Part shown: piece after piece, positions 44,158-64,000 of the stretch
Position numbering within the stretch: position 1 is the first letter of the stretch
Layout of the letters: every line of letters starts with the position of its first letter
From: an uncultured Actinomycetes bacterium
Lineage (GTDB): Bacteria; Actinomycetota; Acidimicrobiia; IMCC26256; PALSA-610
Length of the DNA: 64,000 nt
Reading direction: 5' to 3'
Assembly: GCA_963761055.1 (NCBI GenBank)
Contig: CAVXFO010000007.1
Span: 147,287-211,286, forward strand
Notes under the pieces: generated by a model
The model's input: only the letters and a program-made list of their open reading frames with translations
Databases searched by the model: none
Told to the model about the DNA's origin: nothing
Made by a program: the position numbers and the translations under genes

Positions 44158-44233
44158 CGTCTCCCCCGGCACGCCGTCGTCGGCCGCGGCTGCGGAGGCG
44201 TCACGTTACCCACGCGCGTGTAGCCTTCGGCCG

Positions 44234-47067: not shown

Positions 47068-47146
47068 CCGTGACCAGAAGAGTGTGGAAGATGGAGGGGT
47101 AAAGCCGCAAGGGAATCTGCGTAAATACTTCCTGAAGCCCGCGACT

Positions 47147-48313
47147 TCACCCTCGACCTCCGCCGAAATCACCCGAATTGTCGTGCACGCGCACGATGAG
47201 ACCGACGATGCCGTCGACCACACGATCCTCCAGTGCGGGATACACGGGCAGGCTGAGGACGCGACGCGCGACGTCGTCGGTCACCGACAAGGTGTCCGAA
47301 GCGACGTCGCGATACGCGTGCTGCCGGTGCACCGGGGGATCGAAGTAGGTGCGGGTGTCGACACCCTCGGCCGAGAGTGCGCGTCGTAGGCAATCGCGGT
47401 CGACGCCAAACGCCACCGCGTCGATGGCAACGGTGAAGTCCTTCCACGTCGACCGATCGTTCGCGCCGATGGCCTGCACGTGGACGCCGGGGATCTGTCC
47501 CAGCTGACGGCGGTACCGGTCGACGATCTCGAAACGGCGCGACTGGTACTCGGCGAAGCGTTCCAGTGACGCGAGCGCGGTCGCTGCGTGCATTTCCGAC
47601 ATCCGTCCGTTGAGTCCGACGAACTCGGTGTCGTAGTTCCCGGGATTCGCGTAGTCGCGCCCGATTCGGACATTGCGCGCGACGTCGTCACGAAGCGTTG
47701 CGACGAGACCGCCTTCACCGGCGACGAGCGGTTTCGTCGGCGTGAGGCTGAACACCTCCGCGTCGCCGAAACCGCCGACCCGAACACCATCGGAGATGGC
47801 GCCGAACGCGTGAGCTGCGTCGAACACGAGCGGGACACCTGCCGCGCGTGCGATCGTCTCGAGGTCCTGCGGCGAACACGGAGCGCCGAAGACGTGGGTC
47901 GCGAGGATCGCGCTCGCGCCAGGGAGGCGCGGTGCGAGGTCGTCGAGCGCGAGTTGAAATGACGAGGGGTCGCACTCCGCGAACCGCGGTGTCGCACCGT
48001 TCCACGCGACCGCGTGCGCGGATGCCGAGAATGTGAACGACGGCATGACGACGGGGCCGGTGATCTTCAGCGCCCGCAACGCCAACATGAGACCAGTCGT
48101 GCACGACGAGACCGCGACCACGTGCGGGACACCGAGATGCTCGGCCGCGCGCTGCTCGAGCTCTGCGACAAGCTGCCCGTTCGTGAGTGATCCGCGCTTC
48201 CATGAGTCGGCAAGGATCTCGGTGACGCGTTCGAGGGCCGGCGCCGGCGGACGTACGAACGGAATCCCCTCGGGGAACGTGGCGTCGCCACCGAGCAACG
48301 CGAGCTTTGTCAT
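47147..48313 (-). CDS. DegT/DnrJ/EryC1/StrS sugar aminotransferase
   Basis: VSSCTTGL, PSFTFSAS, FDAAHAFG, FSLTPTK, GEGG, NGRMSE, LSLP. Confidence 0.93.
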   Translation of the reverse strand: MTKLALLGGDATFPEGIPFVRPPAPALERVTEILADSWKRGSLTNGQLVAELEQRAAEHLGVPHVVAVSSCTTGLMLALRALKITGPVVMPSFTFSASAHAVAWNGATPRFAECDPSSFQLALDDLAPRLPGASAILATHVFGAPCSPQDLETIARAAGVPLVFDAAHAFGAISDGVRVGGFGDAEVFSLTPTKPLVAGEGGLVATLRDDVARNVRIGRDYANPGNYDTEFVGLNGRMSEMHAATALASLERFAEYQSRRFEIVDRYRRQLGQIPGVHVQAIGANDRSTWKDFTVAIDAVAFGVDRDCLRRALSAEGVDTRTYFDPPVHRQHAYRDVASDTLSVTDDVARRVLSLPVYPALEDRVVDGIVGLIVRVHDNSGDFGGGRG

Positions 48314-48426
48314 GTCGGGGCCCTCTCCGCCGTGAATCCATTCCTCCACATCTCAATGCCCGCGGGAATCGCACAGACGACGAACACCGTCGCGGATGAC
48401 CCACTCGGCCAGCCCGAGCCGTTCAC
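48310..48426 (-). other. 38-codon ORF bridging the glycosyltransferase and the aminotransferase; probable gene remnant
   Basis: GTG overlaps the upstream TGA (GTGA) and its TGA overlaps the downstream ATG (ATGA). Confidence 0.35.
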
Positions 48427-49624
48427 GCCGTCGCCCCTGCCCGCTTGCGCTCGAGGAGCGCGCCGTAGACGTCGAGGGTGAGGTCGATGCATCGCTGTTC
48501 GTCGAAGTCGGCGACGGCTTTCGCTCGCGCGGCGACCGCTATCTCGCGGCGGCGCGCGTCGTCGGCCGCGATCTCGGCTACCGCGTCGGCGATCGCCGAA
48601 GCGTCGCGCACGGGAACCAGGCGGCCGGTCCGGCCGTCGTCGACGACCTGGCGGCACCCGCGGATGTTCGTCGCTACGACCGGGAGCCCCATGGCCGCGG
48701 CTTCCATCGCGGAGCGCGGAAAGCCCTCGCGGTACGACGCGAGCAGGTAGAGATCGAACGCGGCGTAACACGCCTCCATGTCGGAGCGCTCGCCGACGAA
48801 GTGGATATTGCCGAGGGCCTCGGCCTGTTCGATGTCGGTGGGCGTGAGCGCCTCCGCCTTTGCTTCGTCGAGCGGGCCGACGACCACCATCTCGATCTGC
48901 GGAGCGCGGTCGCGCAACAGCCGGGCCGCCTCGATGACTTCGCGGTATCCCTTCTCCCACACCAGGCGGCCGACGACGCCGCAGACGACGGAGTTTTCCT
49001 TTACGCCCCAACTCGAGCGCAGCACGGCACGCGCCCCGCGTCGATGTGAGCGCGGTCGAAGCGGGTGAGATCGATCCCGTTGCCGAGCAGGTGCAGCTTG
49101 GCCTCGGGAAGCCCGAGCCGGCGCAGTACGCCCAGGTCTTCGACATTCTGCACGAGCTCGGCCTGCGAGCACTTCGCCGCGATGCGTTCCATGCCGTATA
49201 CGACGGTGCGACGCGTCCACGCGTCGCTGGGCTGGGCGTACAGGCCGTGCACCGTGTTGACGACCACGGGGACACGGCTGAAACGAGCCGAGAGCCGGCC
49301 GTAGACGCCGGGCTTGGGGTTGTGCGTGTGCACGATGTCGGGGCGCAGACGCGCGAAAACCCGCGCCAGCTCACCGAGCGCAGCGACGTCTTGCAACGGC
49401 GCCATGGAGCGGGTGGCGTGCTGCAGCGGTACGTGGCGAACGCCGAGTTCGGACAGCCGCTCGACGTACGGTCCCGGCGCGGAGACGCCGATGACCTCGT
49501 AGCCGGCAGTCTGCATGGCCGAAAGCTGGCGGCCCAGAAGGAGCGCCAGACTGATGTCGGTCGTGGTGACATGTACGACCCGGGGGGCTTTGCCGGTAAG
49601 AGTGGCGTCGGAGGGCGCGCTCAC
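48423..49624 (-). CDS. Glycosyltransferase family 4 (frameshift near 49030)
   Basis: PDIVHTHNPKPG, NTVHG, GNGID, GRLVWEKG, SYREGFPRSAMEA, TNIRGCR. Confidence 0.92.
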
Positions 49625-49926
49625 GATGCCGTCACTCCCGTCGCACGCCCCGCGCGGCCATCCGCACGCCGAGCGCGGTTACGCGGACTCTCGAAAATCC
49701 GCGACGCGTCTCCTGACGCCACCACTGTGTCCCCTCCCCCGTTTGAGCGAGACCAGCATCCGTACCGGCCACCGCCCGCCCGGAGATTGTAGTCGAGGCC
49801 GTCAGATGTCGACAATGGTCGTACGCGCATGACGGATCGGTTATCGCTTCCTTGCTCGACCCAGACGCGACTTCGGCTCCCCGTTTCGGGGAGCCGAAGC
49901 GTTCGAAACTCTGTGTTGCTTCGAGA

Positions 49927-50940
49927 TCAGGTCGTGCGTCGCCGCCGGCGAGTCAACAAGAGCAGTGCGGCACCTGCGTCGACCAACGCCGCGGCGATGA
50001 TCAGTAGGTACACACCGTTCGCACCGGTACGAGGCAGCGTGTTCGCAGCAGCCGCAACCGTCGTCGTGGTCGCCGCCGCGGCTGTGACAGGCGTAGCAGC
50101 AGCCGTCGTCGGCGTCGTCGTCGGAGGCGCCGCACCCTGCGCCGAGAGTACGGCGATCGTCGCCGCGCCGCTGCGGGTGCACGAGAGGGTCGAGGTGACA
50201 GTCAGCGTCGCAATAGTGATCTTCGACACGATGTGCATCGACTTCTCGGAAAAGCTCACCGGGTCCGTTGCGTTCTTCGGGTGCCACGTCGTCGGAGTCA
50301 GCGTGGTGGTCCCGACCAGGTCTTGGGCGATGCCGTTCACGATCTTGACCGTTGCAGTACCAGTGCCGGTAACCGTCTGCGTCCCCTCGGTCGTGTTCGA
50401 GCCGGCGATCACCACACTCAGAGTCGACGGGATCTGGTCACCATTCTTGAGGCCGGCGTCTCCCGGAAGTACGCCCGCCTGAAGCGTGCTCCCGCCGATC
50501 GACACCGTGACAGCAGTCTTCGTCAGCTTGATGGGCTGACCCTTGTGGGGTTGCGGGAATGCGCTTGTCGCGACGCCCACACCAACCTTGCTACTCGTCG
50601 TCCCCTGCTTCAGGATGTCGGGGTCGATAGAACCCGAGCAGTTGTTGGTGTCATTCGACGTGCCCGAGAGGCTCGTCTGCGTCAGGCCGACGGTCGTGGT
50701 CGTGGTCGGGCCGACCGTCGTGGTCGTCGCAGCCGCCACCGTCGTGGTCGTCGCAGCCGCCACCGTTGTGGTTGTCGCGGCCGCCACCGTCGTGGTCGTC
50801 GCGGCCGCAGCTGCGACGCCCGTCGTCGGCGTGGTGGTGAGCGCGCCCACCGAACCCCCGTTGACGAGAGCCATGAATGCCGCGGTGCTCATGAGCAGAC
50901 CGCCGTACACGGCAAACCGCTTGCGCCTGTTGAACTTCAC
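49927..50940 (-). CDS. Secreted, sortase-anchored (LPRTG) Thr/Ala-rich surface protein
   Basis: N-terminal signal/TM segment; AAATTTTV repeats; beta-rich domain with two Cys; LPRTG, hydrophobic stretch, RRRRR tail. Confidence 0.9.
   Translation of the reverse strand: MKFNRRKRFAVYGGLLMSTAAFMALVNGGSVGALTTTPTTGVAAAAATTTTVAAATTTTVAAATTTTVAAATTTTVGPTTTTTVGLTQTSLSGTSNDTNNCSGSIDPDILKQGTTSSKVGVGVATSAFPQPHKGQPIKLTKTAVTVSIGGSTLQAGVLPGDAGLKNGDQIPSTLSVVIAGSNTTEGTQTVTGTGTATVKIVNGIAQDLVGTTTLTPTTWHPKNATDPVSFSEKSMHIVSKITIATLTVTSTLSCTRSGAATIAVLSAQGAAPPTTTPTTAAATPVTAAAATTTTVAAAANTLPRTGANGVYLLIIAAALVDAGAALLLLTRRRRRTT
50686..50815 (-). repeat. Approx. 5 x 24-bp repeat encoding (AAA/GP)TTTTV
   Basis: ccaccgtcgtggtcgtcgcagccg-like units on the + strand. 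Confidence 0.85.
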
Positions 50941-51345
50941 GTGTGTTCCCCCCTCTGACGTCCGCCCGGGAACCAGAGGGAGAGACGCCGGCGCACGCGC
51001 GCCGACGAACCCGCCCCCGGCCTTGCGGCCAGCCTCCCCAACGGCGCCAGGTGTCCTGGTCACCCTTCGCGGTCAGCATGGCCCGCGCTCACAGGTGTCC
51101 GCAAGTAGGAATTACGGGTTTCTGTGGGGTTCCCGACTCGTGCCGCCGGATCGGCGCGGGAGAATAGGGACGAATGTGCCTGAGCCGGCGAAGGTGCGCA
51201 GCGAGAGTGGCCACTGCGTGCCGCGCACTGTGAACGGCGGCGACGGCTCCATCGGGCACGGTCACCGGACCTGACGTCGACGTCACCTCCACCGCGAGGA
51301 TGGCGTGTCCAACGCGCCGGCAACCGGCGCCGACCAAGGAGCCAC

Positions 51346-52330
51346 GTGGCGGATCGACCTCGAGCACTCGTCACCGCGCCATTTCGCGGCGAGGGCCTGG
51401 AGACCTTGCAATCCTTGGCCGACGTGGTCTACGACCCGTGGATCGAGCAGGTCCCGCTCCGGCTCTACAGCGGCGAGCAGCTCGCCGCTCGCATCGAAGC
51501 CGAGGGCGCGAACCTGCTCATCGTCGAGTCGGACTCGGTGAAGGGCCCGGTCTTCGACCTTCCCCTCGTGTGCATCGGCTCGTGCCGCGGCGACCCCAAC
51601 AACGTCGACGTCGCGGCGGCGACCGCGGCCGGGATCCCCGTGCTGCGGGCCCCCGGCCGGAACGCCAACACGGTCGCGGAGATCACGATCGCGTTGATGT
51701 TCGCGGTGAACCGCCGGCTCGTCCCCGCCGATCACGACGTCCGGGCGGGCGAGGTCTACGCGGGCGGCAAGATTCCGTACCAGCGCTACCGAGCCTGGGA
51801 GCTCAGCGGCCAGACCGTCGGCATCATCGGCCTCGGGGCGGTCGGACGCGCCGCGAAGTGGCGCTTCGAGGGTCTCGGCATGAACGTGCTGTCGTACGAC
51901 CCGTACAACCCCGATGCCACGCACAACGCCGATCTCGAAGCGATGCTGGCGGAGTGCGACGTCGTCTCCAACCACACGATGGCCACGCCCGAGACCGAGG
52001 GCATCATGGGCGCCGCACAGTTCGCCGCGATGAAGCCGGGCGGCATCTACATCAACTCCGCCCGCGCGATGTTGCACGACACCGACGCGCTCGTGGCCGC
52101 GCTGCTCTCGGGCCAGGTCGGAGGGGCCGGGCTCGATCACTTCAAAGGCGAGAACCTGCCGGTCGATCATCCGCTGTGTGTGATGCCGAACGTGGTGCTC
52201 ACGCCGCACATCGGCGGCGCGACCTACAACACCGAAGCCAACCACTCGAAGCTGATCGCCGACGATGTCGCCCGCATCCTGGCGGGCGAGAAGCCGGTCG
52301 AATTGTGTGAACCCGGAGGTTCTCTCGTAA
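51346..52330 (+). CDS. D-isomer-specific 2-hydroxyacid dehydrogenase
   Basis: APGRNANTVAE, GIIGLGAVG, YDPY, INSAR, LTPHIGGAT; removing one base gives the typical end VNCVNPEVLS*. Confidence 0.9.
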
Positions 52331-52986
52331 TGGCAGACGTCAAGGGAACTGCCGAGGAGATCAAGGCCGACGTGCTGTGGGTCGCCCAGGAGAGCCTGCG
52401 CACCAACCTCGTGCACGGCACCGCGGGCAACTTCTCGGCCCGGCTTCCCGACGGCAACGTCGTGCTGACCCCCTCGTCGCTCGCATACGAGACGATGACC
52501 CTCGACGATCTCGTCGTGTGCGATCTCGACGGCAACGTGGTGGAAGGCGAGTGCCAGCCCACCACGGAGAAGATGCTCCATCTCGCGTGCCTGAAGAGAT
52601 ACGACGACATCCACGCCGTCATCCACTGCCACGCGAAGTTCTGCACCATGTTCGCGCTCACGCACCAACCGATCCCGTGCGTCATCGAAGAGGTCGAGGC
52701 GTTCGTTGGTGGCGACGTCCCCGTCGCGGCTTACAAGTTCACCGGCTCCCAGGCACTGGCCGACGAGGTGTCGAAGTGGGTAGGCGACCGGGCCGCGGTG
52801 CTCATGGCGAACCACGGCCTGCTCACGGTCGGCAAGTCGGCCCGGGACACGTTGAAGATCGCGAACATGGTCGAGCTCACCGCGGAGATGATCTGGGGTG
52901 CGCGCCTCCTCGGCGAGATCGTGCCGCTGCCGGAGAAGACCCGGGCCAAGATGGCGCCGGTCTACAAGCTGATCCGCGGGATGTAG
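52330..52986 (+). CDS. Class II aldolase/adducin family protein
   Basis: GTAGNFSAR, TPS, PTTEKMLH, AVIHCH, LMANHG; GGAGG upstream of the ATG. Confidence 0.9.
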   Translation: MADVKGTAEEIKADVLWVAQESLRTNLVHGTAGNFSARLPDGNVVLTPSSLAYETMTLDDLVVCDLDGNVVEGECQPTTEKMLHLACLKRYDDIHAVIHCHAKFCTMFALTHQPIPCVIEEVEAFVGGDVPVAAYKFTGSQALADEVSKWVGDRAAVLMANHGLLTVGKSARDTLKIANMVELTAEMIWGARLLGEIVPLPEKTRAKMAPVYKLIRGM

Positions 52987-53028
52987 CTCGTGGTCCGTCT
53001 CCAAAATGCTGCGGCGGCGCGTACAATT

Positions 53029-53076
53029 CGTGTGCTACTTCCGGTGGTATCACGGGTGGTACCACCGGCAGTATCA
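53029..53076. repeat. 12-bp period direct repeats between convergent genes
   Basis: CGTGTGCTACTT / CCGGTGGTATCA / CGGGTGGTACCA / CCGGCAGTATCA. Confidence 0.6.
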
Positions 53077-53168
53077 CTCGGTTTTCCAGGGTCCGTGATG
53101 CGCGTCTCCTGGACCGTCCCCACCGTGTGCCGGGTGGCGATCCACCCGATCACATCGGCGACGGACTA

Positions 53169-53828
53169 CTAGCGCTTCCGACAGATCGTCAGACCGTCTG
53201 CGATCGGGAGCATGACCGTGTCGACCCGGTCGTCGTGCGCGACCTTTTCGTTGAACGCCCGGATGGCGAGGGTGTTCTCGTCGTCGGCATCAGATCGGAT
53301 GACCCGGCCGTCCCAGAGCACGTTGTCGACGAGGATCGCGCCGTTCGTTCGCATCTTCGGGAGGAGGGCGTCGAAGTAGCCCGCATAGTTGGGCTTGTCG
53401 GCGTCGATGAACGCCAGATCGAACGACTTGTCGGCGGGCAGGGCGGCGAGAGTGTCGAGGGCGGGCGCGAGCTTCAGCTCGATACGAGCCGATACGCCGG
53501 CTTGCTCCCACGCCCGGCGGCCGATCGCGGTCCATTCCTCGGAGACGTCGCAGCACGTCAGATGACCCGCCGGCGGAAGCCCGCGTGCGATACAGAGCGC
53601 TGAGTAACCGGTGAAGGTGCCGATCTCGATCGCGGTCCGGGCTCCGACCAGTTGGGTGAAGATCGTCAGAAACGCACCCTGCTCGGGCGCGATCTGCATT
53701 CCCGACACGGCACCCAGTGCGGCGGTTGCTTCGATCAGCCCTCGCTGCACCGAATCGGGCGGGCTTCCGTGAGCTACGAGGTATTCGGAGAGCTCGGCGG
53801 TCAGCAGGAAGGACTTTGGTTCGGCCAC
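53169..53828 (-). CDS. Class I O-methyltransferase (caffeoyl-CoA OMT-like)
   Basis: MQIAPEQG, IEIGTFTGYS, FDLAFIDADK, VDNVLWDG, LPIADGL. Confidence 0.94.
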   Translation of the reverse strand: MAEPKSFLLTAELSEYLVAHGSPPDSVQRGLIEATAALGAVSGMQIAPEQGAFLTIFTQLVGARTAIEIGTFTGYSALCIARGLPPAGHLTCCDVSEEWTAIGRRAWEQAGVSARIELKLAPALDTLAALPADKSFDLAFIDADKPNYAGYFDALLPKMRTNGAILVDNVLWDGRVIRSDADDENTLAIRAFNEKVAHDDRVDTVMLPIADGLTICRKR

Positions 53829-53927
53829 GAGCGCGCACGTTACCGAACCGCTGCGCCTGACACGCCGCGTCAGTTGGCGCGTACGATCGGGCACCCCGCC
53901 GGCCACGGCGAGCAAGCTGGAGACCAC

Positions 53928-56147
53928 GTGACCGACCTGCAAACTGCCGGCGAGCCCGAGGGGAGCGCCGCGTCGCTCGTGGCCGCGGTCCTCGACGAGG
54001 AAGCCGCCCGGCAAGCAGCGCAGGCCCGCGCCAAAGAACAGGTCATCTTCCCCGACGATCTGCTCCCGGGGGTCAACTCCGAGCCGGTCGGGTTCCGCAG
54101 CGCGTTCGCCAAGGGCGGGGCCTCGATGTTCGTCGTGCTCGGCCTGTTGGTGTCGCTCGACCAGCTCACGCTGAACGCGGTGCAGACGATCGAGCCCGAA
54201 CTGCGCCAGACGTTTCACATCAGCAACGGCTCGGTGGTGTTCATCGCCTCGGCGTCGAGCTTGTTCTACGCGTTGGGCGCGATCCCGATGGGCTGGCTCG
54301 CCGACCGGCGCAAGCGCGTCCCGATCGTCGCCGTCGCCACGCTCGTCGCCGCGTTCTTCACGTTCCTCTCGGGACTCGCCGGCAGCGCGTTCGTCCTCTT
54401 CTCCGCGCTGTGTCTCACCGGGGTCGCCAAGGCGAACAACCTGGCCGTGCATCAGCCGCTGCTCGCAGACAACTATCCGATCGGCATCCGGGCCCGCATG
54501 TCGGCGACGATGAACATCGGCCAGCAGGTACTCGGCAACCTGAGCCCGGTGATCGTCGGCGCGATCGCGACCTGGGCCGGCGGCGTCGAGGGCTGGCGGT
54601 GGGCGTTCTTCGTCCTCGGCATCCCGGGCGCGGCGCTCTCCTTCGTCGTGTACCGCCTCAAGGAACCGCCGCGCGGCCAGTACGAGAAGCAGGACGTGCT
54701 GGGTGAGGTCATCGAGGACGAGAACCCGGCCCAGCCATCGATGGAAGCCGCGTTCGCGCGGTTGAAGAAGGTCGCGACGATCCGCACGTCGATCGCGGCG
54801 TTCGCCGCACTGGGCTTCGGCGTGTTCGCGCTCGGCGCGCTCCAGGTGCTCTACCTGAACGACACGCTGCACGTCACGAACATCCTCCACCGTGGCTTCA
54901 TCCTCAGCCTCTCGGGCTGGACGGCTGTGCCGTTCCTCTACCCCGTCGGCCGCTATTTCGACCGGACGTATCGCAAGAACCCGTCGAAGGCACTCGTGCT
55001 CGTGGGCACGCTGATCCTGCCGTCGGCATTGTTCACACCGCTGCAGGTGTCGACCCACAGCGTCGTGTGGTTCGTGATCTGGGGCATCCCGCAGTCGGTG
55101 CTGACCGCGTGTGCTTTCGCCATGGTGACGCCAGTGCTGCAAGCCGTGTGTCCGTACCGGTTGCGCGGACTCGGTGTGGCGATGGGCGTCATGTACGTCG
55201 TGCTCATCGGCGGATTCGGCGGAAGCGTGCTCGCCGACTTCTTCACCAACGCGTTCGGCGTGCGCGACACCGTCTTCCTCCTCCTGGTTCCGACCAGCGT
55301 CGTCGGCGCCTTGCTCTTGATGAACGGCGCGCGTTTCATCCGTCACGATCTCTCGCTGGTCGTGGAGGAGTTACTCGAAGAACAAGAGGAGCAGCGAAAA
55401 CGAAACGTCGAAGGCGTCGAGACTCCTGTGCTCCAGGTCGCGAACATCGACTTCTCGTACGGGCCGGTCCAGGTGCTCTTCGACGTCAACTTCGAGATCT
55501 TCCGGGGCGAATGCGTCGCGCTGCTCGGCACCAACGGCGCCGGCAAGTCGACGATCCTGCGGATCATCAGCGGTCTCGAGGTTCCCGAACGCGGCGTGAC
55601 CCGCCTCAACGGCCGCAACATCACGTTCGTGGCGCCCGAGCAGCGGGTGCGCCACGGCATCGTGCAACTCCCGGGGGGAAAGGGAGTGTTCCCGAGCCTC
55701 ACAGTGATGCAGAACCTCGGCGTCGCGTCCCGCCTGCGGGGAGGAACGACCACCGAGATCGCCGACCGCATCGAAGAAGTGCTCGTCTTGTTCCCCGAGC
55801 TCACCGAGCGGCGCAAGCAACTCGCGCGCAGCCTCTCGGGTGGTCAGCAGCAGATGCTCGCGCTGGCACGAGTGCTCATGCAGGAGCCCGAGATCCTGTT
55901 GATCGACGAGCTGTCGCTCGGGCTGGCGCCCGTCGTCGTCCAGCGCATGCTCGAGTTGGTCGACCGGCTGAAGGCGCGGGGCCAGACGATGATCATCGTC
56001 GAACAGTCGCTGAACGTGGCGCTCGCGATCTCCGACCGGGCGCTCTTCCTCGAAAAGGGCGAGGTCAAGTTCGAAGGCAACGCCCAGGAGCTCATGGAAC
56101 GTGACGACCTCGCCCGGGCCGTCTTCTTCGGGACCGAGGGCGGTTGA
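53928..56147 (+). CDS. MFS transporter fused to a LivF-like ABC ATPase
   Basis: About 12 hydrophobic segments with MFS motif A (GWLADRRKR) and GWRWAFF; charged linker; then GTNGAGKST, LSGGQQQM, LLIDE, IVEQ in one continuous frame. Confidence 0.9.
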   Translation: MTDLQTAGEPEGSAASLVAAVLDEEAARQAAQARAKEQVIFPDDLLPGVNSEPVGFRSAFAKGGASMFVVLGLLVSLDQLTLNAVQTIEPELRQTFHISNGSVVFIASASSLFYALGAIPMGWLADRRKRVPIVAVATLVAAFFTFLSGLAGSAFVLFSALCLTGVAKANNLAVHQPLLADNYPIGIRARMSATMNIGQQVLGNLSPVIVGAIATWAGGVEGWRWAFFVLGIPGAALSFVVYRLKEPPRGQYEKQDVLGEVIEDENPAQPSMEAAFARLKKVATIRTSIAAFAALGFGVFALGALQVLYLNDTLHVTNILHRGFILSLSGWTAVPFLYPVGRYFDRTYRKNPSKALVLVGTLILPSALFTPLQVSTHSVVWFVIWGIPQSVLTACAFAMVTPVLQAVCPYRLRGLGVAMGVMYVVLIGGFGGSVLADFFTNAFGVRDTVFLLLVPTSVVGALLLMNGARFIRHDLSLVVEELLEEQEEQRKRNVEGVETPVLQVANIDFSYGPVQVLFDVNFEIFRGECVALLGTNGAGKSTILRIISGLEVPERGVTRLNGRNITFVAPEQRVRHGIVQLPGGKGVFPSLTVMQNLGVASRLRGGTTTEIADRIEEVLVLFPELTERRKQLARSLSGGQQQMLALARVLMQEPEILLIDELSLGLAPVVVQRMLELVDRLKARGQTMIIVEQSLNVALAISDRALFLEKGEVKFEGNAQELMERDDLARAVFFGTEGG

Positions 56148-59100
56148 TGCTCGCCTCGGTCTTCCAACCGCACATCTTCACCGCGAACCTCCTGTTCATC
56201 GGGCTCGTGCAGGGACTGATCGTGTCGGTGCTCGCGATGGGCATCGTTCTCGTGTACCGCTCGAGCCGGGTCATCAACTTCGCGGTCGCCGATCTCGGCG
56301 TTCCCGCGGCGGCGTTGCTCGCGGTAATGGTCGCCAAGTCGAACTTCCCGTACTGGCCCGCGCTCGTCCTCGCGCTGCTGGCCACGACCATCGGCGGGGC
56401 TGTCATCGAGATGTTCGTGATCCGGCGCCTGTTCAAGGCCCCGCGGGTCATCGTTCTGGTCGCCACCATCGGCGTCGCCGAGCTCATGCGGGCGATCGTG
56501 CTCCAGCTCCCCGACTATCGCACCGGCAAGTTCCAGACGGCCTACCCGAGCCCGATCAACAGCCAGTGGCACATCGGTTCGCTGATCAACCTGCGGGTGT
56601 CGAAGCTCCACATCCAGATCACGAACGTGACGATCACCGGGCCCCAACTCCTGGTGCTCATCGTCGTCCCGCTGATCACCTTGTTCCTATGGTGGCTGCT
56701 CGGGCACACCTCGTTCGGCGAGATGGTGCGGGCTTCGGCAACCAACTCCGACCTGGCCCGCCTCACCGGTATCAGCCCGAAGCTGATGTCGACCGCCATC
56801 TGGACGATCGGTGGGTTCCTTTCGGGGGTCGCGCTCATCCTGTACGCGACCCAGCAGGGTTCCGCCGAGCTCGTCCTGATCGGACCGGAGACGTTGTTGC
56901 TCGGCCTGACCGCCGCCCTGATCGGCGGCATGACCTCGTTCCCGCGCACTGTCGCGGGTGCGATCGTCGTCGGCCTCACATATCAGGTGCTGACGTACAA
57001 CTTCCCGAACACGCCCGGCATCGTGCAGTTCGTGTTGTTCGGTCTGGTGCTCGCGCTCGTCGCCCGGATGAGCCGGGCCGAGGCCGCCGCCGGCAACGAG
57101 AGCTTCGCGTTCGCACCTCGGGTTCCCCCCGTGCCGGAGCGGCTGCGACAGGTGTGGTGGGTCCGGCACATGCCAACCGTGGTCGCCGGCCTCGCGGTCG
57201 CGGTCGCGATCGCGGTGCCCCTGTTCGTCCGCCAATCCCAGCACCATCAGGCGTACACGATCGTCGTCGCGACCGCGATCATCGCGGTGTCGGTAATCGT
57301 GCTCACCGGTTGGGCCGGACAGCTGTCGCTCGGTCAGGCCGCCTTCGCGGGACTGGGCGCGCTCAGCGCCGCCGCGTTCGTCCGCGGCGTCACGCTCAAC
57401 ATCGGCTGGCGCTCGCGCTTTCGTATCGCCGACGGATCGATCCGCCCGATCCCGATGGCCTTCGCATTGGTATTGGTGGTCATCGCCGCGTCGGCGATCG
57501 GGTTTGCCCTCATGCGGCACAAGCGCGCGCGACAACGCGTCCTCGCGGTCGGTCTCACCGTCGTCGCGATCGCGGCGGGTGCCGCGGTGCTGCCCGGCAC
57601 CATCGACCGCTCCGACACGTTGCACCGGATCCCGTTCGTACTCGCGGTGTTCCTCGGCGCGGGCGTGTCGTGCCTGGTCGCCGTCGCCGTCGGCATCGGC
57701 GCGCTGCGGGTGAAAGGCCTCCTTCTCGCCATCAGCACGATGGCATTCGCGATCGCCGCCGAGCAGTACATCTTCCCGAGGCCGATCCTCGTCGGTGCCG
57801 AAGGCTCGCTCAACGCCGAGCTCGACCGGGGCAAGCTCGGTCCGATCGACCTGACGCTGCACAACCGGGCCTTCTATTTCTTCACCCTCGCGTGCCTCGT
57901 GCTGGTGCTGTTCCTCGTCGGCCACCTCCGGCGCACCGGCATCGGCCGCACGATCATCGGCGTACGGGAGAACGAGCCCGGCGCGTCGGCATTCACCGTC
58001 TCACCGACCCGCGCCAAGCTCACCGCGTTCGCAGTCGCCGGATTCGTCGCCGGGCTCGGAGGCGCGTTACTCGGCGGTTCCGTCGTCATCATCAGCTACG
58101 GGGAACGTTTCTTCCGGGTCGAGGACTCCTTGTCGGTCGTCGCGATGGCTGTGATCGGCGGCCTCGGCAGCCTGGCCGGCGCAGTGACCGGTGCGCTGTG
58201 GGTCGTGGGCCTGCCGCTCTTTTGGCCGAAGAACCAGACCGTGCAGCTCTTCACGTCGAGCATCGGGCTCCTCATCGTGCTGCTCTATATCCCCGGTGGT
58301 TTCACCCAACTCGGTTACGCGCTCCGAGGATGGATCCTGCGCTGGCTCGAACGCCGACTGCCCGAGCGGGCCACGAAGACGACGACGGTGCCGCCGGTCT
58401 CCCTGACACGGATCACCAGTGTCCCGATCGTCACCAACCCCGACGGCAGCGTCGTCGCAACCAGCGCACTCACGGTCGCGTTCGGCGGTGTCGTCGCGGT
58501 GAACTCGGTCGACTTCCACGCGAATGCCGGCGAGGTCATCGGCCTGATCGGGACGAACGGTGCCGGTAAGTCGACGCTGCTCAACACGATCGGCGGGTAC
58601 GTGTCGAGCAAGGGCACGGTGCAGCTCCTCGGCGACGACGTCTCGCATCTGTCTCCGCACGTGCGGGCCCGCGCCGGCCTCGGCCGCACTTTCCAGGCGG
58701 CGACACTCTTCCCCGAGCTCACGGTGCGCGAGACGGTGCAACTGGCGCTCGAAGCGCGCGGCCGCACGTCGTTCTGGGGTTCGCTGTTGTTCTATCCCCC
58801 GTCGATCGCGAAAGAGCGCAAGAAGCGGTCCGAGGCCGCCGAGCTCATCGATTTCCTTGGACTGGGCCGCTACGCCGACCGGTTCATCGCCGAGCTGTCT
58901 ACCGGGACCCGCCGAATCGTCGAGCTCGCCTCGGTGCTGGCGGTCCAGCCTCGGGTCGTGTGCCTCGACGAGCCGACCGCGGGAGTCGCCCAACGGGAAG
59001 CCGAGGCGTTCGGACCACTCATCAAGCGCTTGCAACGCGAGCTCGACGCGACGCTCATCGTCGTCGAGCACGACCTGCCACTCATCCTGTCGATCAGCGA

Positions 59101-59254
59101 CCGTATCTACTGTCTCGAAGCCGGTGCAGTGATCGCCGAAGGCAGGCCGGAGGAAGTCCGTTCCAATCCGTTGGTCATCTCGTCGTATCTGGGCACCGAC
59201 GACCGGGCGATCCAACGGTCGAACTCGACCGCCGCAGACCCCGCCGCGGTCTGA
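56147..59254 (+). CDS. Fused branched-chain-type ABC transporter, LivH-LivM-LivG-like
   Basis: RSSRVINFA, RASATNSDLARLTGI; GWAGQLSLGQAAF, GVRENE, AVIGGLGS; GTNGAGKST, LSTGTRR, CLDEPTAG, VVEHD. Confidence 0.92.
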   Translation: MLASVFQPHIFTANLLFIGLVQGLIVSVLAMGIVLVYRSSRVINFAVADLGVPAAALLAVMVAKSNFPYWPALVLALLATTIGGAVIEMFVIRRLFKAPRVIVLVATIGVAELMRAIVLQLPDYRTGKFQTAYPSPINSQWHIGSLINLRVSKLHIQITNVTITGPQLLVLIVVPLITLFLWWLLGHTSFGEMVRASATNSDLARLTGISPKLMSTAIWTIGGFLSGVALILYATQQGSAELVLIGPETLLLGLTAALIGGMTSFPRTVAGAIVVGLTYQVLTYNFPNTPGIVQFVLFGLVLALVARMSRAEAAAGNESFAFAPRVPPVPERLRQVWWVRHMPTVVAGLAVAVAIAVPLFVRQSQHHQAYTIVVATAIIAVSVIVLTGWAGQLSLGQAAFAGLGALSAAAFVRGVTLNIGWRSRFRIADGSIRPIPMAFALVLVVIAASAIGFALMRHKRARQRVLAVGLTVVAIAAGAAVLPGTIDRSDTLHRIPFVLAVFLGAGVSCLVAVAVGIGALRVKGLLLAISTMAFAIAAEQYIFPRPILVGAEGSLNAELDRGKLGPIDLTLHNRAFYFFTLACLVLVLFLVGHLRRTGIGRTIIGVRENEPGASAFTVSPTRAKLTAFAVAGFVAGLGGALLGGSVVIISYGERFFRVEDSLSVVAMAVIGGLGSLAGAVTGALWVVGLPLFWPKNQTVQLFTSSIGLLIVLLYIPGGFTQLGYALRGWILRWLERRLPERATKTTTVPPVSLTRITSVPIVTNPDGSVVATSALTVAFGGVVAVNSVDFHANAGEVIGLIGTNGAGKSTLLNTIGGYVSSKGTVQLLGDDVSHLSPHVRARAGLGRTFQAATLFPELTVRETVQLALEARGRTSFWGSLLFYPPSIAKERKKRSEAAELIDFLGLGRYADRFIAELSTGTRRIVELASVLAVQPRVVCLDEPTAGVAQREAEAFGPLIKRLQRELDATLIVVEHDLPLILSISDRIYCLEAGAVIAEGRPEEVRSNPLVISSYLGTDDRAIQRSNSTAADPAAV

Positions 59255-59260
59255 CCGAGC

Positions 59261-59548
59261 ATGCAGTTCAGCCGCGAACTGCGCCCCGGCGTGGCTTCCG
59301 GGAAGATCACGCTGTCTTTCCGACTGTGGACGCGCCCGCAGGTGAAGATCGGCGGGCAGTACTCGACCGCGGGCGTCAAGATCGAGATCGATTCCATGGA
59401 GATCGTTCCTTTCGGCAGCGTCACCGCGGCCGACGTACGCCGTGCCGGCGAACACGACCGCGAAACGCTGCGCAACCGAACCGCACATGCCGGCCCCGTC
59501 GACGACGACACGCTCGTCTATCGGATCGAATTCCACGCGATCGCGTAG
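59261..59548 (+). CDS. ASCH/PUA-like small protein
   Basis: MQFSRELRPGVASGKITLSFRLWTRPQVKIGG...VYRIEF. Confidence 0.7.
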   Translation: MQFSRELRPGVASGKITLSFRLWTRPQVKIGGQYSTAGVKIEIDSMEIVPFGSVTAADVRRAGEHDRETLRNRTAHAGPVDDDTLVYRIEFHAIA

Positions 59549-59553
59549 CTCGG

Positions 59554-60712
59554 TCATGGCGAACGTCCGGGTGGTGGGCGGAGTGTGCGTTTGCGGGTCT
59601 CGGGGTCGGGTGGCCCGAGGAGCCAGCCGCTCGTCTTGAGCCGGTGGTGGCGGTAACAGAGCCAGCACAGATTCTTGTACGACGTCGGGCCGCCCTTGGC
59701 ATGGTCGTGCACGTGATCGCGTTCCAGGTAACCGCGGTGGTTGCACCCTTCGGCGTCGCACTCGCGACCCCCGACGAGCAACGCGGTCATGAGCTCGGCC
59801 GGGATGTGCCGGCCGAGGTGCGCAACGGTGACGATGTCCTTGCCCTTCGTGATCACAGCGGTGAGGAACGCGGAACCGAGCTGCTCTCGCACCCAATTCA
59901 CGTCGACCGGGCCGACTCCGGGGATCTCGCACACCTCACCCGGCACCAGCTCACCGCTACGCAACGTCTCGTGACCGACCATGACATGCACGGTCACATT
60001 CGTCGCACGCGGTGAAGACTTCGATGCATCGTCGGTGCGGTCGAGAATGAACCCGGCGACCGCATCCGAGGCGTACGCGTCGTTCGACTCGTGCTCCGTC
60101 CCCGCCTTGTGCTCACGGAAGATCCGCTGGGCCTGCTGCTCGATCACCGTTTTCAGCTGCGCGCCGATCTCCGGCGAATACCGAAAGTGCCCCGCCCACA
60201 TCCCGTCGCGATCCGTCCACCACCGAAACGAACGATCCCGAAGGTGACGCTCACGCCGCTGCTTCGAGTCCTCGACCGCGGCCCGCGCCGCCACACACGC
60301 GTCGCGCAACGCCACCAGCCCCAACTTGGCCGCACCCAACAGGTCTTGTTCCGCGGCCGGGTTGATCGTCGCCGCGTCGGCGATCAAGCTCGCCTCCTTC
60401 GCCGACAAACGCCCGGCCCGCACCGCCGCTTCAGTGGCCGGCAACTCGTCGAGCTTCTTCGCAGTCTCGACCGCAGTCCGGACCTCGCCCGTACCGACCC
60501 CGAGCGAACGACCCACCGCCGCGCACCCGTTGTCGGCACTCGTCTCCGCGACTCTCCTCGCGGGCGCGCCCGATCATCCCGTCGACCACCCGCCGGATCG
60601 CACCCAACTGATCGACCACTCGAGTCGCCGCTTCCGGCGTCAACGCGGCCGCGTCGAACTCGAGAGCGACCGAGTTCAACGTACTGCGAGCCGTATCGAG
60701 CGAGGCGCACAT
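59554..60712 (-). CDS. DUF222-type HNH endonuclease domain protein (frameshift near 60550)
   Basis: LPATEAAVRAGRLS, CEIPGVGPV, RHIP, ECDAEGC...LERDHV...GGPTSYKNLCWLCYRHHRLKT. Confidence 0.88.
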
Positions 60713-60742
60713 ATGTTCGTATCGTAACGACGGGGTGTGACA
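60706..60742 (-). promoter_or_regulatory. DNA-damage promoter: PafBC/RecA-NDp-like motif plus LexA-box-like site
   Basis: Minus strand TGTCAC-N10-TACGAT, then CGAACATATGTGCG overlapping the ATG. Confidence 0.65.
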
Positions 60743-60760
60743 ACAACGATCCGCGCAACC

Positions 60761-61255
60761 TCAGCCGAAGGACATGCGGTACATGTCGGCGAGAAAGCCA
60801 TCGTCCACGATCGCCTGCTTCCAGAAATCGAAGCCGAGTTTGCCCGCCACGTTGCTCGACGGCGCGTTCGTCGGGTCGATCATGGCGAGCAGCTCCCCGC
60901 CAAATGTCTGCGCCATCAGAGCGAGGACCGCGTGCCCGGCCTCGGTCGCATATCCCCTGCCGCGAGCGTGCGGAACGAGCCGGTAGCCGAACTCGAGCCG
61001 ACGCTCTCCTTCGAAGTCGAACCATGCGACACCGCAGTAGCCCACGGTCAGTCCCGACGACAGCTCGACCACCGGCTGTTTCCCGTACGGGACCTCGAGA
61101 CAGGTGGCGAGCATTCCGTCGAAGCGCGCCCCGGCGGACTCGAGCGTGCAGACGCCGTCCGAGAACACCATGAACTCCGGATCGCGGAAGAACTCCACGA
61201 ACCGCGCCCGATCACTCTCGGCCGGTGGACGGATCTCGAGTCGCTCGGTCAGCAT
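60761..61255 (-). CDS. GNAT acetyltransferase (RimJ/RimL-like)
   Basis: LTERLEIRP, EFGYRL, RGRGYATEA, NAPSSNVAGKLGF. Confidence 0.92.
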   Translation of the reverse strand: MLTERLEIRPPAESDRARFVEFFRDPEFMVFSDGVCTLESAGARFDGMLATCLEVPYGKQPVVELSSGLTVGYCGVAWFDFEGERRLEFGYRLVPHARGRGYATEAGHAVLALMAQTFGGELLAMIDPTNAPSSNVAGKLGFDFWKQAIVDDGFLADMYRMSFG

Positions 61256-61265
61256 CGGCGTCGCC

Positions 61266-62135
61266 TCACGAACTCTGCGCGACGAACTCGAGCCGACCCG
61301 GTGTCCCGTCGGGCAACGACCGCTCCGCGTAGGCCGCAGTCAGCGCGACTCCAAGCGAGCGGCACGATGCGACGGCATCCACCGGGATGTTCGCGGTGAC
61401 AATGCCGAAGCCCGTGCCCGGGGTCGTCGCCTCGCCGAGATCACCGTCGTCACGAACGCTCGGGTCGGCTCGCGACTCCACCATGATGTCGCCGCACCAC
61501 AGGCTCGTGGCATCGACGCGTTGGAGAAGCTCGGCGAACGCCCATGCTCGCTGAGACGGCTCGGAGTAGCCGTACCAGTAGATCATTCCGCCTCCGCCAT
61601 TCGCGACTGCAGCGGCAAGATCAACCGCGCAGACGCCTTCGGGATCGCTCTGCCACGGGTCGTACGGGTCGACGTGCGCGATCAGGTCACTCGCGTCATC
61701 GCTGTCGGCCAGCTCGGCGTACAGCGCGCGATTGCCGTCGGAGGGCACGATTCGTGCGTCGACACCGAGACGCGAGGACCATTCGACGAGATCTGCGCAG
61801 CTGCCCGCGTCCTTGTCACACAGGATGTACGAGCACTCGTCTCCGAGCTGGAGCATCGCGAGCAGCGACGAACCGGGATACGTCTTGATCGTCCCTTGCG
61901 GATTCAGCTCGTGCAGATGGCGGAGATAGTGCGACGACGCGAGCTGCGGCACGCCCGGCGCGAGCTCGACGAAACTCAACGCGCCGTAGTGTTGCTCCGC
62001 GTCGGACGAGACTGTGTAGGCGGCGCTCCCGGCGTGACTCTCCCAATACCGCCGGGGTCGTGTGGTCGCCAGGATCTCCGTCAGAGGCAGGTGCTTCCAG
62101 ACATCGGCCAACTTCGCGTAGTGACGGTTAGCCAC
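61266..62135 (-). CDS. RlmJ-like SAM-dependent methyltransferase (divergent)
   Basis: HYAKLADVWKH, YWESHAGSAAY, YPGSSLLA, DG, HVDPY, MIYWYG parallel the order of RlmJ motifs. Confidence 0.6.
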   Translation of the reverse strand: MANRHYAKLADVWKHLPLTEILATTRPRRYWESHAGSAAYTVSSDAEQHYGALSFVELAPGVPQLASSHYLRHLHELNPQGTIKTYPGSSLLAMLQLGDECSYILCDKDAGSCADLVEWSSRLGVDARIVPSDGNRALYAELADSDDASDLIAHVDPYDPWQSDPEGVCAVDLAAAVANGGGGMIYWYGYSEPSQRAWAFAELLQRVDATSLWCGDIMVESRADPSVRDDGDLGEATTPGTGFGIVTANIPVDAVASCRSLGVALTAAYAERSLPDGTPGRLEFVAQSS

Positions 62136-62202
62136 GGTTCACACCGGCAACGCGGATCTCACAACGCTACGAGTCGCGGGAGACCGCCGCCCGCGAAATA
62201 TC

Positions 62203-63057
62203 TCAGGCTTGCGGACTGCCGAGAATCGGCGCGATCAGCTCGAGGGCCGGACTCGCTACGGCACGGTTGCCGTGAGTGGTGATACACGCCCGCGCCTCGT
62301 CGTACGAGACGCCACGCGAGAGCATCGCGACGGCTCGGTCGGGCGCGATCGTGACACGCGCGTCGGGGTCTGGCGGCTCGCCGTCGAGCACCGACCAGTG
62401 GCTCGATTCGCGCCGCCACGTCCAGGTGCCCGCCGCGCCGAACTCGATCGCGATCGTCGAGCCCGGCGTCGGTTCATAGTCGCGTAACCAGCGAGCGAGC
62501 GCATGCACCACGACTTGGGCCGCAGTGCGAACCATGTCGCCGTCGAGATCGGCAGCACCCACCGCGCGTCGGATCTGCGACTGATGGACGAATCGCTCGA
62601 TGTACTCGCGCGCGATCACCTGCCAATACGGCGACGGGCCGTCGGCAGCGAAGAATCCAACCGGCTCCCGTGAGACGGTTTCGAGGCCGACGTTGCAATA
62701 GAACTCGTCGCTCCACTCGCCGGCCAGACGGAGCAACTCGATCACCAAGGCAGTGCTGCAGAACTGTGCCGCCGTGACCCACTCCTCGTTGAAGCCGTCG
62801 AGGAGCTCCCGGAACGTCGCGCCCGGATGACGCACTGCGAACAACGTCAGGCTGTCGGTCGAGGCGTCGCGTTGGCGCGTCAGCAGCGACAGATCGTCGC
62901 CGAGAACGTGTAGCGCGACGCCCTTGACATCCCACGCCGGACACTCGGTCGGCAGTTCCCAGTCGGACGGAGTGAGCCCTCCGAGGAGGTCGAGAAAGAG
63001 GGAACGCTCCGGACCGAGCCGCGCGGTGACGTCGAGGATCGGGATGTCGGGACCCAT
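62203..63057 (-). CDS. Maleylpyruvate isomerase N-terminal (DinB superfamily) protein
   Basis: DWELPTECPAWDVKGVALH, REYIERFVHQSQIRRAVG; SCP2-like C-terminus. Confidence 0.88.
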   Translation of the reverse strand: MGPDIPILDVTARLGPERSLFLDLLGGLTPSDWELPTECPAWDVKGVALHVLGDDLSLLTRQRDASTDSLTLFAVRHPGATFRELLDGFNEEWVTAAQFCSTALVIELLRLAGEWSDEFYCNVGLETVSREPVGFFAADGPSPYWQVIAREYIERFVHQSQIRRAVGAADLDGDMVRTAAQVVVHALARWLRDYEPTPGSTIAIEFGAAGTWTWRRESSHWSVLDGEPPDPDARVTIAPDRAVAMLSRGVSYDEARACITTHGNRAVASPALELIAPILGSPQA

Positions 63058-63324
63058 GCGTCGAAGCTATACGCCCTCCAGGAAGCGGGCGATGGGTTGC
63101 TCGGCGCTCGCGATGAGTTCGTGGGCCGCCGCCGTCTTCGTCTACGAGGTCAATCCGCGCCGCGACCGCAGTCGGTACCGCCGAAGCGACCCAGGGTTCG
63201 ACGCGTTGGCGGTTCTGAAATCAGAGCGATGGGCGCCGCGCGCGCAGCACGTCATTTCGAGCGGCCGTCGGCGGCGGTTATGGGGCGGGCGTAGCGCGGC
63301 AGTCGGTGCGCTTGGACAGAGCGC

Positions 63325-63735
63325 CTAACCGGCGAGGAACGTGGTGGTGCCGAGCATGAGCTCGCTCGCGGCGACGATGATCTCGATCCCGTCTCCGACT
63401 ACGCCCCCACCGTTTCCACTGAACTCAAGTTGGTAGCCGTCGAGCCACCCGTGATGGTTCGTCAGAACACGCCGCCAACGCACGCTCGCGCCGATGAACC
63501 GTCTCCACGGTTCCTCCCGCTCTGCATCGTGACGCTCGCACTTCGGTCGACCGGCCGAACCGGCATCGGCCTCGTGAACCCAGATTGTGTCGTCATCCAG
63601 CGCCTCGAACGCGACGGCCCGGTTACCGAATGACAGCGCAGCGGATACGAGGTGCACCGCGTCCCGAAACTCTGCCACCGCGCTCAGCGAGTCAAAGTCC
63701 CACCACTCGATCCCGAAACCGTAAGGAGACTCCAC
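63325..63735 (-). CDS. Hypothetical protein (start uncertain)
   Basis: 136-aa ORF with protein-like composition (WRRVLTNHHGWLDGYQLEF); no recognised family. Confidence 0.5.
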   Translation of the reverse strand: MESPYGFGIEWWDFDSLSAVAEFRDAVHLVSAALSFGNRAVAFEALDDDTIWVHEADAGSAGRPKCERHDAEREEPWRRFIGASVRWRRVLTNHHGWLDGYQLEFSGNGGGVVGDGIEIIVAASELMLGTTTFLAG

Positions 63736-64000
63736 CCGACCAGAATGCCCGATCGCGCACCACCGGGCGAGCGCAGATCGGGAAGTCGGGTGCCTCGCGC
63801 CAGGTCGTCGACGCCCCCGCGCCCGGCTGAACCGATCAGCCGGGCTTGGTCACGTCTCGCAGCGGCGTCAACGCCTTCCAGTCTCCGTTCGAACCGGATG
63901 TCGGATCGAACGACACCAACGAGAAGTTGTTGTCGGCGTCGTACTTGCCGGTCCCCAGCGTTGCCGCCGCGGTTCCGACCAACGTGATCGTCCCGAAGTT

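Follow-up and report, generated by a model that had tools for sequence, protein, structure and literature searches.

A major facilitator carrier fused to a LivF-type ATPase in a predicted binding-protein-dependent importer of actinobacteria

We have analysed a stretch of 64,000 nucleotides (nt) from an uncultured bacterium of the Acidimicrobiia (GenBank assembly GCA_963761055.1, contig CAVXFO010000007.1, positions 147,287 to 211,286), which is referred to below as the window and has a G+C content of 65–70%. In our own numbering it corresponds to G000:C7:147287-211286, where G000 is the source genome; L013 and L014 denote further stretches of the same genome, on C7 and C8 respectively. Two overlapping genes of the window encode a transporter in which a whole carrier of the major facilitator superfamily (MFS) is continuous with a LivF-type ATPase of the ATP-binding cassette (ABC) class, and in which the LivH-, LivM- and LivG-type components are fused in a second chain. 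Judged from its sequence, the system is a complete binding-protein-dependent importer of the HAAT type, equipped with an accessory MFS module, and the fusion is real, old and widespread in actinobacteria.

Gene 1 (53928..56147, forward strand, stop codon TGA at 56145-56147) is a single open frame of 739 amino acids (aa), in which Pfam places MFS_1 at residues 75–426 (E 5e-37) and ABC_tran at residues 518–661 (E 7e-29). Its GTG start (53928) has a GGAGA Shine-Dalgarno sequence upstream and aligns with the ATG starts of homologues. All motifs of the ATPase were found, namely Walker A (GTNGAGKST), LSGGQ, Walker B (LLIDE) and the LivF-type VEQS, and the top NCBIfam models for this C-terminal part are UrtE and LivF, both with scores under their equivalog cut-offs. 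From the N-terminus, and all on the forward strand, the chain comprises a cytoplasmic extension with an FPDDLLPGV motif (residues 1–55; 53928..54092), delimited by alignment and modelled with low confidence; the 12-helix MFS domain (residues 56–467; 54093..55328), recognised from an AlphaFold2 model, structural matches and motif A; a linker helix, IRxDLSLVVEELxEE, between the last transmembrane helix (TM12) and the ATPase (residues 468–497; 55329..55418), seen in the model and the alignment; and the LivF-type cassette (residues 498–739; 55419..56144), assigned by Pfam and NCBIfam and with 1ji0 as its top match in both Foldseek and VIA-align. Gene 2 (56147..59254, forward strand) encodes a LivH-LivM-LivG fusion of 1035 aa, and its ATG (56147) overlaps the TGA of gene 1 by one base (TGATG). 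The LivH, LivM and LivG parts lie, likewise on the forward strand, at approximately 56147-57106, 57146-58423 and 58439-59251. Pfam recognises BPD_transp_2 (E 8e-54) in three stretches that make up a LivH-like and a LivM-like part, together with ABC_tran and BCA_ABC_TP_C (38.7 bits, cut-off 25.5); the top NCBIfam model is LivG (E 3e-58, under the curated equivalog cut-off), and the UrtC model matches residues 498–721. An initial annotation of the window, made by reading the sequence, had described gene 1 as an MFS permease continuous with an ABC ATPase with intact motifs, and gene 2, overlapping its stop codon, as two Liv permease domains followed by a LivG ATPase; the single frame and the Pfam and NCBIfam assignments bear out both descriptions. 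A sequence search with the LivH-LivM part against solved structures yielded no matches, and neither did an Rfam search for riboswitches or other RNAs over 52800-54100, 5' of gene 1 (E <= 1).

The fused protein has numerous relatives. In a word-indexed protein search, 1,959 of the 8,000 proteins scored were found at E <= 0.001, and the best 120 of these 1,959 relatives all carry both PF07690 and PF00005, at 74–100% identity and lengths of 671–771 aa. From a scan of one genome per species, which gave 128 relatives, we kept 80 loci, mostly from uncultured Acidimicrobiia or other Actinomycetota and including also Streptomycetaceae bacterium NBC_01309 (two copies), Streptomyces nymphaeiformis, Yinghuangia aomiensis, an Embleya sp. 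and Microthrix. The orthologues from cultured strains (S. nymphaeiformis SFB5A, Y. aomiensis JCM 17986, Embleya sp. and NBC_01309) are approximately 51% identical to gene 1. The MFS and LivF parts share one unbroken frame in 70 of 77 related loci, so that homologues of this protein are usually fused, where the initial annotation had allowed for the opposite; the frame breaks of the remaining seven fall within the MFS or the LivF part, none of them at the junction, and most of these loci have other broken genes. The second chain is about as constant, with LivH and LivM in one frame in 64 of 71 loci and LivM and LivG in 59 of 62, and LivH starts at most 640 nt after LivF in 72 of 73.

When the phylum was sampled evenly, a match at E <= 1e-60 was obtained in 53 of 401 genomes, and it covered both the MFS and the LivF part in 40 of the 401; the latter count is a lower bound, as two candidates were scored per genome, and includes two unpublished genomes (G082 and G268), becoming 38 of 398 when three unpublished genomes are left out. 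Searched with the MFS part alone, a library clustered at 50% identity gave 130 representatives at E <= 1e-30, 954 at 1e-10 and 4,358 at 1e-3. Among the best 150 of these representatives, 22 cover the query from end to end: 16 are of fused length (698–752 aa), four have 526–619 aa and two (419 and 458 aa) are of stand-alone size. A search restricted to proteins of 220–700 aa retrieved chiefly fragments of fused proteins, and the fusion persists to 40% identity. Very long frames (1,300–1,740 aa), considered as candidates for still bigger fusions, were rejected as high-GC read-through of adjacent frames. Database annotations already carry a two-domain name for such proteins; a full-text literature search, with TCDB and subscription journals outside its reach, found no description or functional study of the architecture, in line with the initial annotation, whose author knew of no functional characterisation.

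The main correction concerning the window is that the system, which the initial annotation had described as lacking a binding protein, is not binding-protein-free. The statement that no LivK-type gene is adjacent holds for the immediate neighbours of the transporter genes, among which Pfam detects no Peripla_BP_6 gene, and fails farther out: the last 165 bases of the window (63836..64000, reverse strand) belong to a LivK-type lipoprotein gene, of which they form the 3' end; it is the first in a tandem array of three, and the other two lie past the window. The array occupies L013:5123-9503 (= G000:C7:211122-215502, reverse strand), 4.6 kb downstream of gene 2, and two of the 17 matches to the Peripla_BP_6 family in this genome fall just past the window end. 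One copy (L013:8118-9503) is intact, with 461 aa, an LAAC lipobox, a Peripla_BP_6 score of 45 bits and a model of LivK-type fold (predicted local distance difference test score, pLDDT, of 88). The middle gene has one frame break and the copy nearest the window two (both genes within L013:5123-8000 = G000:C7:211122-213999, reverse strand), not at obvious homopolymers.

Elsewhere, genes of this kind lie closer to the transporter. In 55 loci, 3 kb or more of sequence is available on either side of the operon; all of them have LivH-LivM-LivG, and a binding-protein profile match was detected within 500 bp of the operon in 44 and within 6 kb in 49. None was detected in the other six, for which approximately 7–10 kb were examined. 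Searched against the PDB, the profile (built from 36 binding proteins) recognises LivJ, LivK and binders of urea (4gnr at 3.7e-10); when 14 profile matches were sampled and checked with Pfam, seven scored above the Peripla_BP_6 cut-off, three scored below it and four were missed. In close relatives the lipoprotein homologues are found directly downstream on the opposite strand, and in others directly up- or downstream on the same strand. LivK-type lipoproteins are thus conserved neighbours of the operon, displaced here by 4.6 kb, and the co-occurrence with LivK-like proteins that the initial annotation had wanted to see examined turns out to be the common state. Its suggestion that the MFS carrier substitutes for a binding protein loses its premise.

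The source genome contains a paralogous system of another layout (L014:2331-12025, on G000:C8), with a LivH-LivM gene, an MFS-LivF-LivG gene, a gene for a 476-aa protein and a Peripla_BP_6 gene. Its MFS domain is 27% identical to that of gene 1 and is the only other match to the latter in the genome at E <= 0.001 (two matches among ten candidates). The MFS-LivF-LivG arrangement recurs in other genomes (L095-L100 and L108), versions without an MFS exist (L101, L109 and L110), and ordinary unfused Liv operons have LivF proteins of approximately 50% identity (L102-L108). The 476-aa protein, without a Pfam match, recurs beside the second type of system, with three copies in L110; as a candidate binding protein it shows a faint match to a LivK-like profile (hhalign probability 12%, E 0.0024). 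In a tree of 61 LivF sequences, the 32 with the arrangement of the window form one clade (support 100/100), nested in a wider clade (100/99) that also includes the second arrangement, the MFS-less versions and the seven unfused LivFs just named, and that stands apart from the other LivFs of the genome. The branching order inside the wider clade is an open polytomy, by which a single origin of both fusion types is neither supported nor excluded. Because MFS-less sisters occur in the same LivF clade, the ABC core does not need the MFS as a pathway, and the MFS is best regarded, on this comparison, as an add-on to the ABC system.

The MFS module itself is still under constraint. In the AlphaFold2 model of gene 1 (pLDDT 80.4, predicted template-modelling score 0.72), the helices of the carrier span residues 56–467 and are followed by a separate helix (471–494) and the ATPase. 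Foldseek with the whole model returned ATPase matches only; in a VIA-align search of 48,161 solved chains, 365–410 residues of the MFS aligned to solved 12-helix MFS structures at Z 35–39, with twelve transmembrane helices in two six-helix halves and the full fold retained without deletions. Human Spns1 (Z 39.4, root-mean-square deviation 3.1, 410 residues, 21% identity) and SotB (Z 39.4) rank first, followed by SPNS2 (Z 36.3), HnSpns (Z 29.5, 20% identity) and many other MFS folds (Z 27–37). By sequence, the closest solved relative is HnSpns (6e8j, E 1.9e-6). The top NCBIfam models are ACS (D-galactonate), PgtP and an aromatic-acid symporter, at 59–77 bits with cut-offs of approximately 400. 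The domain may therefore be called Spinster-like only in the sense of its nearest solved relative. Motif A of MFS carriers (G-x-L-x-D-R-x-x-R, in the loop between TM2 and TM3) is represented by GWLADRRKR, whose D126 and R130 are invariant in an alignment of 42 sequences, and has a second-half counterpart with D345 and R349. In the same alignment, D78 of TM1 is at least 90% conserved, and D181, P184 and R188 of TM4 and a PYRLRG segment are invariant or nearly so. In place of the Asp-Arg pair of TM1 in HnSpns, the present protein has Asp-Gln and most relatives have Asp-Glu.

Conservation extends to the cytoplasmic parts. Against 29 distant relatives, identity is 43% in the N-terminal and 35% in the C-terminal half of the MFS, on a par with the LivH and LivM domains of the same system, and reaches 56% in the N-terminal FPDDLLPGV motif, 52% in the central loop, 47% in the linker helix and 61% in the ATPase. 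Constraint on the cytoplasmic face is thus no weaker than on the membrane core, as motif, loop and linker stand at 47–56% and the core at 35–43%. Within the 42-sequence alignment, L45, L46, P47, G48 and V49 of the extension are at least 90% conserved; in the linker, D474 is invariant and V479, E481, L482, E484, E485 and E488 are at least 90% conserved, in a helix predicted at 471–494. Both fusion types have a linker of approximately 25 residues after TM12, helical and beginning with Asp-[Ile/Leu/Met], and the MFS-less forms have none.

The two ATPases differ in their sites. The Q-loop of LivF is LPGGKG, in which Gly occupies the position of the Glu or Gln of canonical LivF paralogues (residues 582–585, 55671-55682 of the window; G583 and G584 are invariant in the 42 sequences). 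PGG occurs in every aligned LivF of the wider clade, and PEG or PQG in the five other LivF paralogues of the genome; all LivG sequences have the usual Gln. In LivF, moreover, Gln replaces the His of the H-loop, and its site faces the LivG signature LSTGT; LivG has consensus Q- and H-loops, and its site faces the LSGGQ of LivF. This points to one consensus and one weakened nucleotide site, that of LivF being probably the less active of the two. Asymmetric sites are known in other heterodimeric ABC proteins.

By homology with Liv-type importers, extracellular LivK-type lipoproteins would supply the LivH-LivM permease encoded by gene 2 with substrate, and import would be powered by a heterodimer of LivG, the last domain of gene 2, and LivF, the last of gene 1. 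Normal assembly of this kind would tether the MFS to the ABC permease with one MFS per complex, because the two chains supply one LivF, one LivG, one LivH and one LivM. The MFS may work by alternating access and carry an organic anion, or an amphipathic substance, akin to what is imported; such a second lane could serve as relief valve or exchanger, or as a route of low affinity. The conserved cytoplasmic face and the linker could couple it allosterically to the ATPase cycle, with LivF as the regulatory half of the ATPase pair. That the MFS is still a working carrier, coupled to the ATPase cycle in this manner, is the reading that we tentatively prefer, and we give it slightly less than an even chance. 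A more specific version, which we put forward as speculation and hold to be improbable, is that closure and opening of the LivF/LivG dimer gate or drive the Spinster-like MFS through a rigid linker, and that import is combined with ATP-controlled release or exchange of a related compound, e.g. as a relief valve for toxic phenolic or organic acids.

Several points weigh against the preferred reading. Contact or coupling between the MFS and the ABC parts is a prediction from sequence and a single-chain model; conservation of the cytoplasmic elements could reflect a role in folding or in binding some other partner; and the Q-loop Gly, common to the MFS-less relatives, is not tied to the fusion. 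Two of the three binding-protein genes are broken in the assembly, and this copy of the locus might be decaying. Finally, the modelled binding protein resembles binders of aromatic acids, fatty acids, urea and amino acids to much the same degree, by which its fold would not fix the substrate.

The alternative that survives best is one of tethering alone, in which an independent carrier is fused for the sake of co-expression, 1:1 stoichiometry or co-localisation and has no allosteric link to the ATPases. In its favour, MFS carriers, as is generally known, normally work alone; the MFS-less sisters show the ABC core to be self-sufficient; and two of the best 150 representatives cover the query fully at the size of a stand-alone carrier. 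The linker, however, is no floppy tether but helical, conserved and constant in length in the two types of fusion, the N-terminal motif and the central loop are conserved like the membrane core, and the fusion has been kept over deep divergence, so that we regard tethering alone as rather unlikely. A carrier that no longer transports is a further alternative: the MFS would sense the substrate as a 'transceptor', or act as a scaffold, and thereby regulate or stabilise the importer. It is joined to LivF, whose catalytic site appears to be the weaker of the two, no curated MFS subfamily fits it (the best NCBIfam score is 77 bits, with a cut-off of 395), and the TM1 pair of HnSpns is altered, all of which would agree with such a role; the charge networks of motif A in both halves, the Asp of TM1 and the Asp and Arg of TM4 are nevertheless kept, as a cycling carrier needs them, in a 12-helix fold that has suffered no deletions, and we consider this explanation unlikely. 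A hybrid that dispenses with binding proteins, with the MFS as the site of substrate capture and with direct transfer, in either direction, between MFS and ABC permease inside the membrane, could draw on the six well-flanked loci without a binding-protein gene and on the frame breaks of two local copies; it is made very improbable by the lipoprotein genes within 500 bp or 6 kb of the operon in most loci, by the intact, lipobox-bearing copy present here and by the MFS-less relatives of the same clade. An artefact, i.e. two genes read as one through an indel in the linker, would be in keeping with the frame breaks that nearby genes show in this assembly, and its chance is close to nil, as the same fusion, unbroken and approximately 739 aa long, is found in assemblies obtained independently from numerous sources, including complete genomes of cultured Streptomycetaceae; for the family, these sequences refute an error of assembly or annotation.

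ABC importers (primary and ATP-driven) and MFS carriers (secondary and gradient-driven) are separate classes in textbooks, and one of each would here be joined in a single complex, in a design that Acidimicrobiia-like actinobacteria and certain Streptomycetaceae have retained despite deep divergence. Were the preferred reading of a coupled, working carrier correct, the system would represent a novel form of carrier regulation by ATP, or of linkage between uptake and efflux, and hundreds of database proteins now named merely 'ATP-binding protein' or 'MFS transporter' would gain a function; the more specific version would amount to an ATP-regulated MFS and a physical couple of import and efflux. 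The orthologues in cultured strains make the architecture accessible to ordinary genetics and biochemistry.

Between gene 2 and the binding-protein genes lies a block of 4.6 kb (59255..63835) with six open reading frames (ORFs), which by Pfam comprise a 97-aa ORF, a 339-aa ORF without assignment, and GNAT, methyltransferase-like, DinB/MDMPI-like and DUF6334 proteins. Compared with the 80 related loci, the block gave no nucleotide match, and its six ORFs gave one marginal protein match (E 0.001); it is peculiar to this lineage. An origin as a mobile element was considered and discarded, with no flanking repeats, integrase or transposase seen. Past the binding-protein genes (L013:9597-15812) there follow a double ATPase of the ABC-F type and an AftD-like GT-C arabinofuranosyltransferase of 1,539 aa with carbohydrate-binding modules.

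On the other side, the immediate, divergent neighbour of gene 1 is a Methyltransf_3 O-methyltransferase of 220 aa (53169..53831, reverse strand), which the initial annotation had overlooked. The gene is hidden in an apparent gap of 940 bp, and its frame runs on antisense through gene 1 as a spurious 725-aa ORF. A homologue adjoins the operon in 26 of the 80 loci (22 of a close clade and four of a distant one, kin that are not independent of each other), and the enzyme is possibly related in function to the transporter. Farther upstream, a D-2-hydroxyacid dehydrogenase fused to a class II aldolase (51346-52986, forward strand) precedes the transporter in the close clade only, and 45172-51063 holds a polysaccharide-synthesis group (Polysacc_synt_2, a DegT aminotransferase and GT4) with an LPXTG-anchored protein of 378 aa. 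The 'surrounding lipid/acyl-CoA genes' from which a hydrophobic substrate had been surmised are enoyl-CoA hydratase and thiolase-like genes approximately 10 kb upstream (42058-44205), with the polysaccharide-synthesis genes in between, and the closer, recurring neighbours weakly favour phenolic or organic acids instead. A sulfatase and a PadR regulator are encoded nearby in four (L045, L056, L061 and L064) of the five Streptomycetaceae loci, the fifth being L047, and three further loci have a sulfatase (L031, L044 and L074); genes for a family-3 glycosidase and a sulfatase-maturing enzyme also recur within 10 kb of the transporter. The model of the binding protein is closest to the Rhodopseudomonas aromatic-acid binders 4eyg and 4ey3 (E 1e-16), with near-equal matches to the Thermomonospora fatty-acid binder 4n03, urea binders and Leu/Ile/Val binders. 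Because the neighbouring enzymes act on phenolic hydroxyls or conjugates and the top-ranked NCBIfam models for the MFS lean towards organic anions, there is, by analogy, a weak hint at phenolic or other organic acids as substrates.

Among known systems, the nearest in overall composition are the importers of the HAAT family (which we take to be TC 3.A.1.4), such as LivJ/K-LivHMGF of E. coli and UrtABCDE. Like these, the system has one LivH- and one LivM-type BPD_transp_2 domain, a LivG with the BCA_ABC_TP_C tail, a LivF with Gln in place of the H-loop His, and Peripla_BP_6 binding proteins; unlike them, it condenses five proteins into two chains, its LivF bears a whole MFS and has Gly for the Glu or Gln of the Q-loop, and its binding proteins are very divergent (45 bits in Pfam for the intact copy). 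With the Spinster carriers (HnSpns 6e8j, human Spns1 and SPNS2), the MFS domain has in common the Asp of TM1 and the D..P...R pattern of TM4, whereas identity is merely about 20%, SotB is an equal structural match, and ACS and aromatic-acid symporter models rank first in NCBIfam; we know of no Spinster protein fused to an ABC ATPase. The MFS-LivF-LivG systems with their LivH-LivM partners are similar in having the same MFS subfamily, a LivF of the same wider clade, the linker helix after TM12 and binding-protein genes nearby, and differ in that both ATPases are on the MFS chain, LivH-LivM form a separate chain, the 476-aa protein is a neighbour and some members are without an MFS. In fusions of the LplT-Aas type, an MFS lysophospholipid flippase is joined to an acyltransferase/acyl-ACP synthetase, and there, as here, an MFS is covalently linked to a cytoplasmic partner acting on the same stream of substrate; the partner in that case is an enzyme, whereas in the present system it would be the motor subunit of another transporter.

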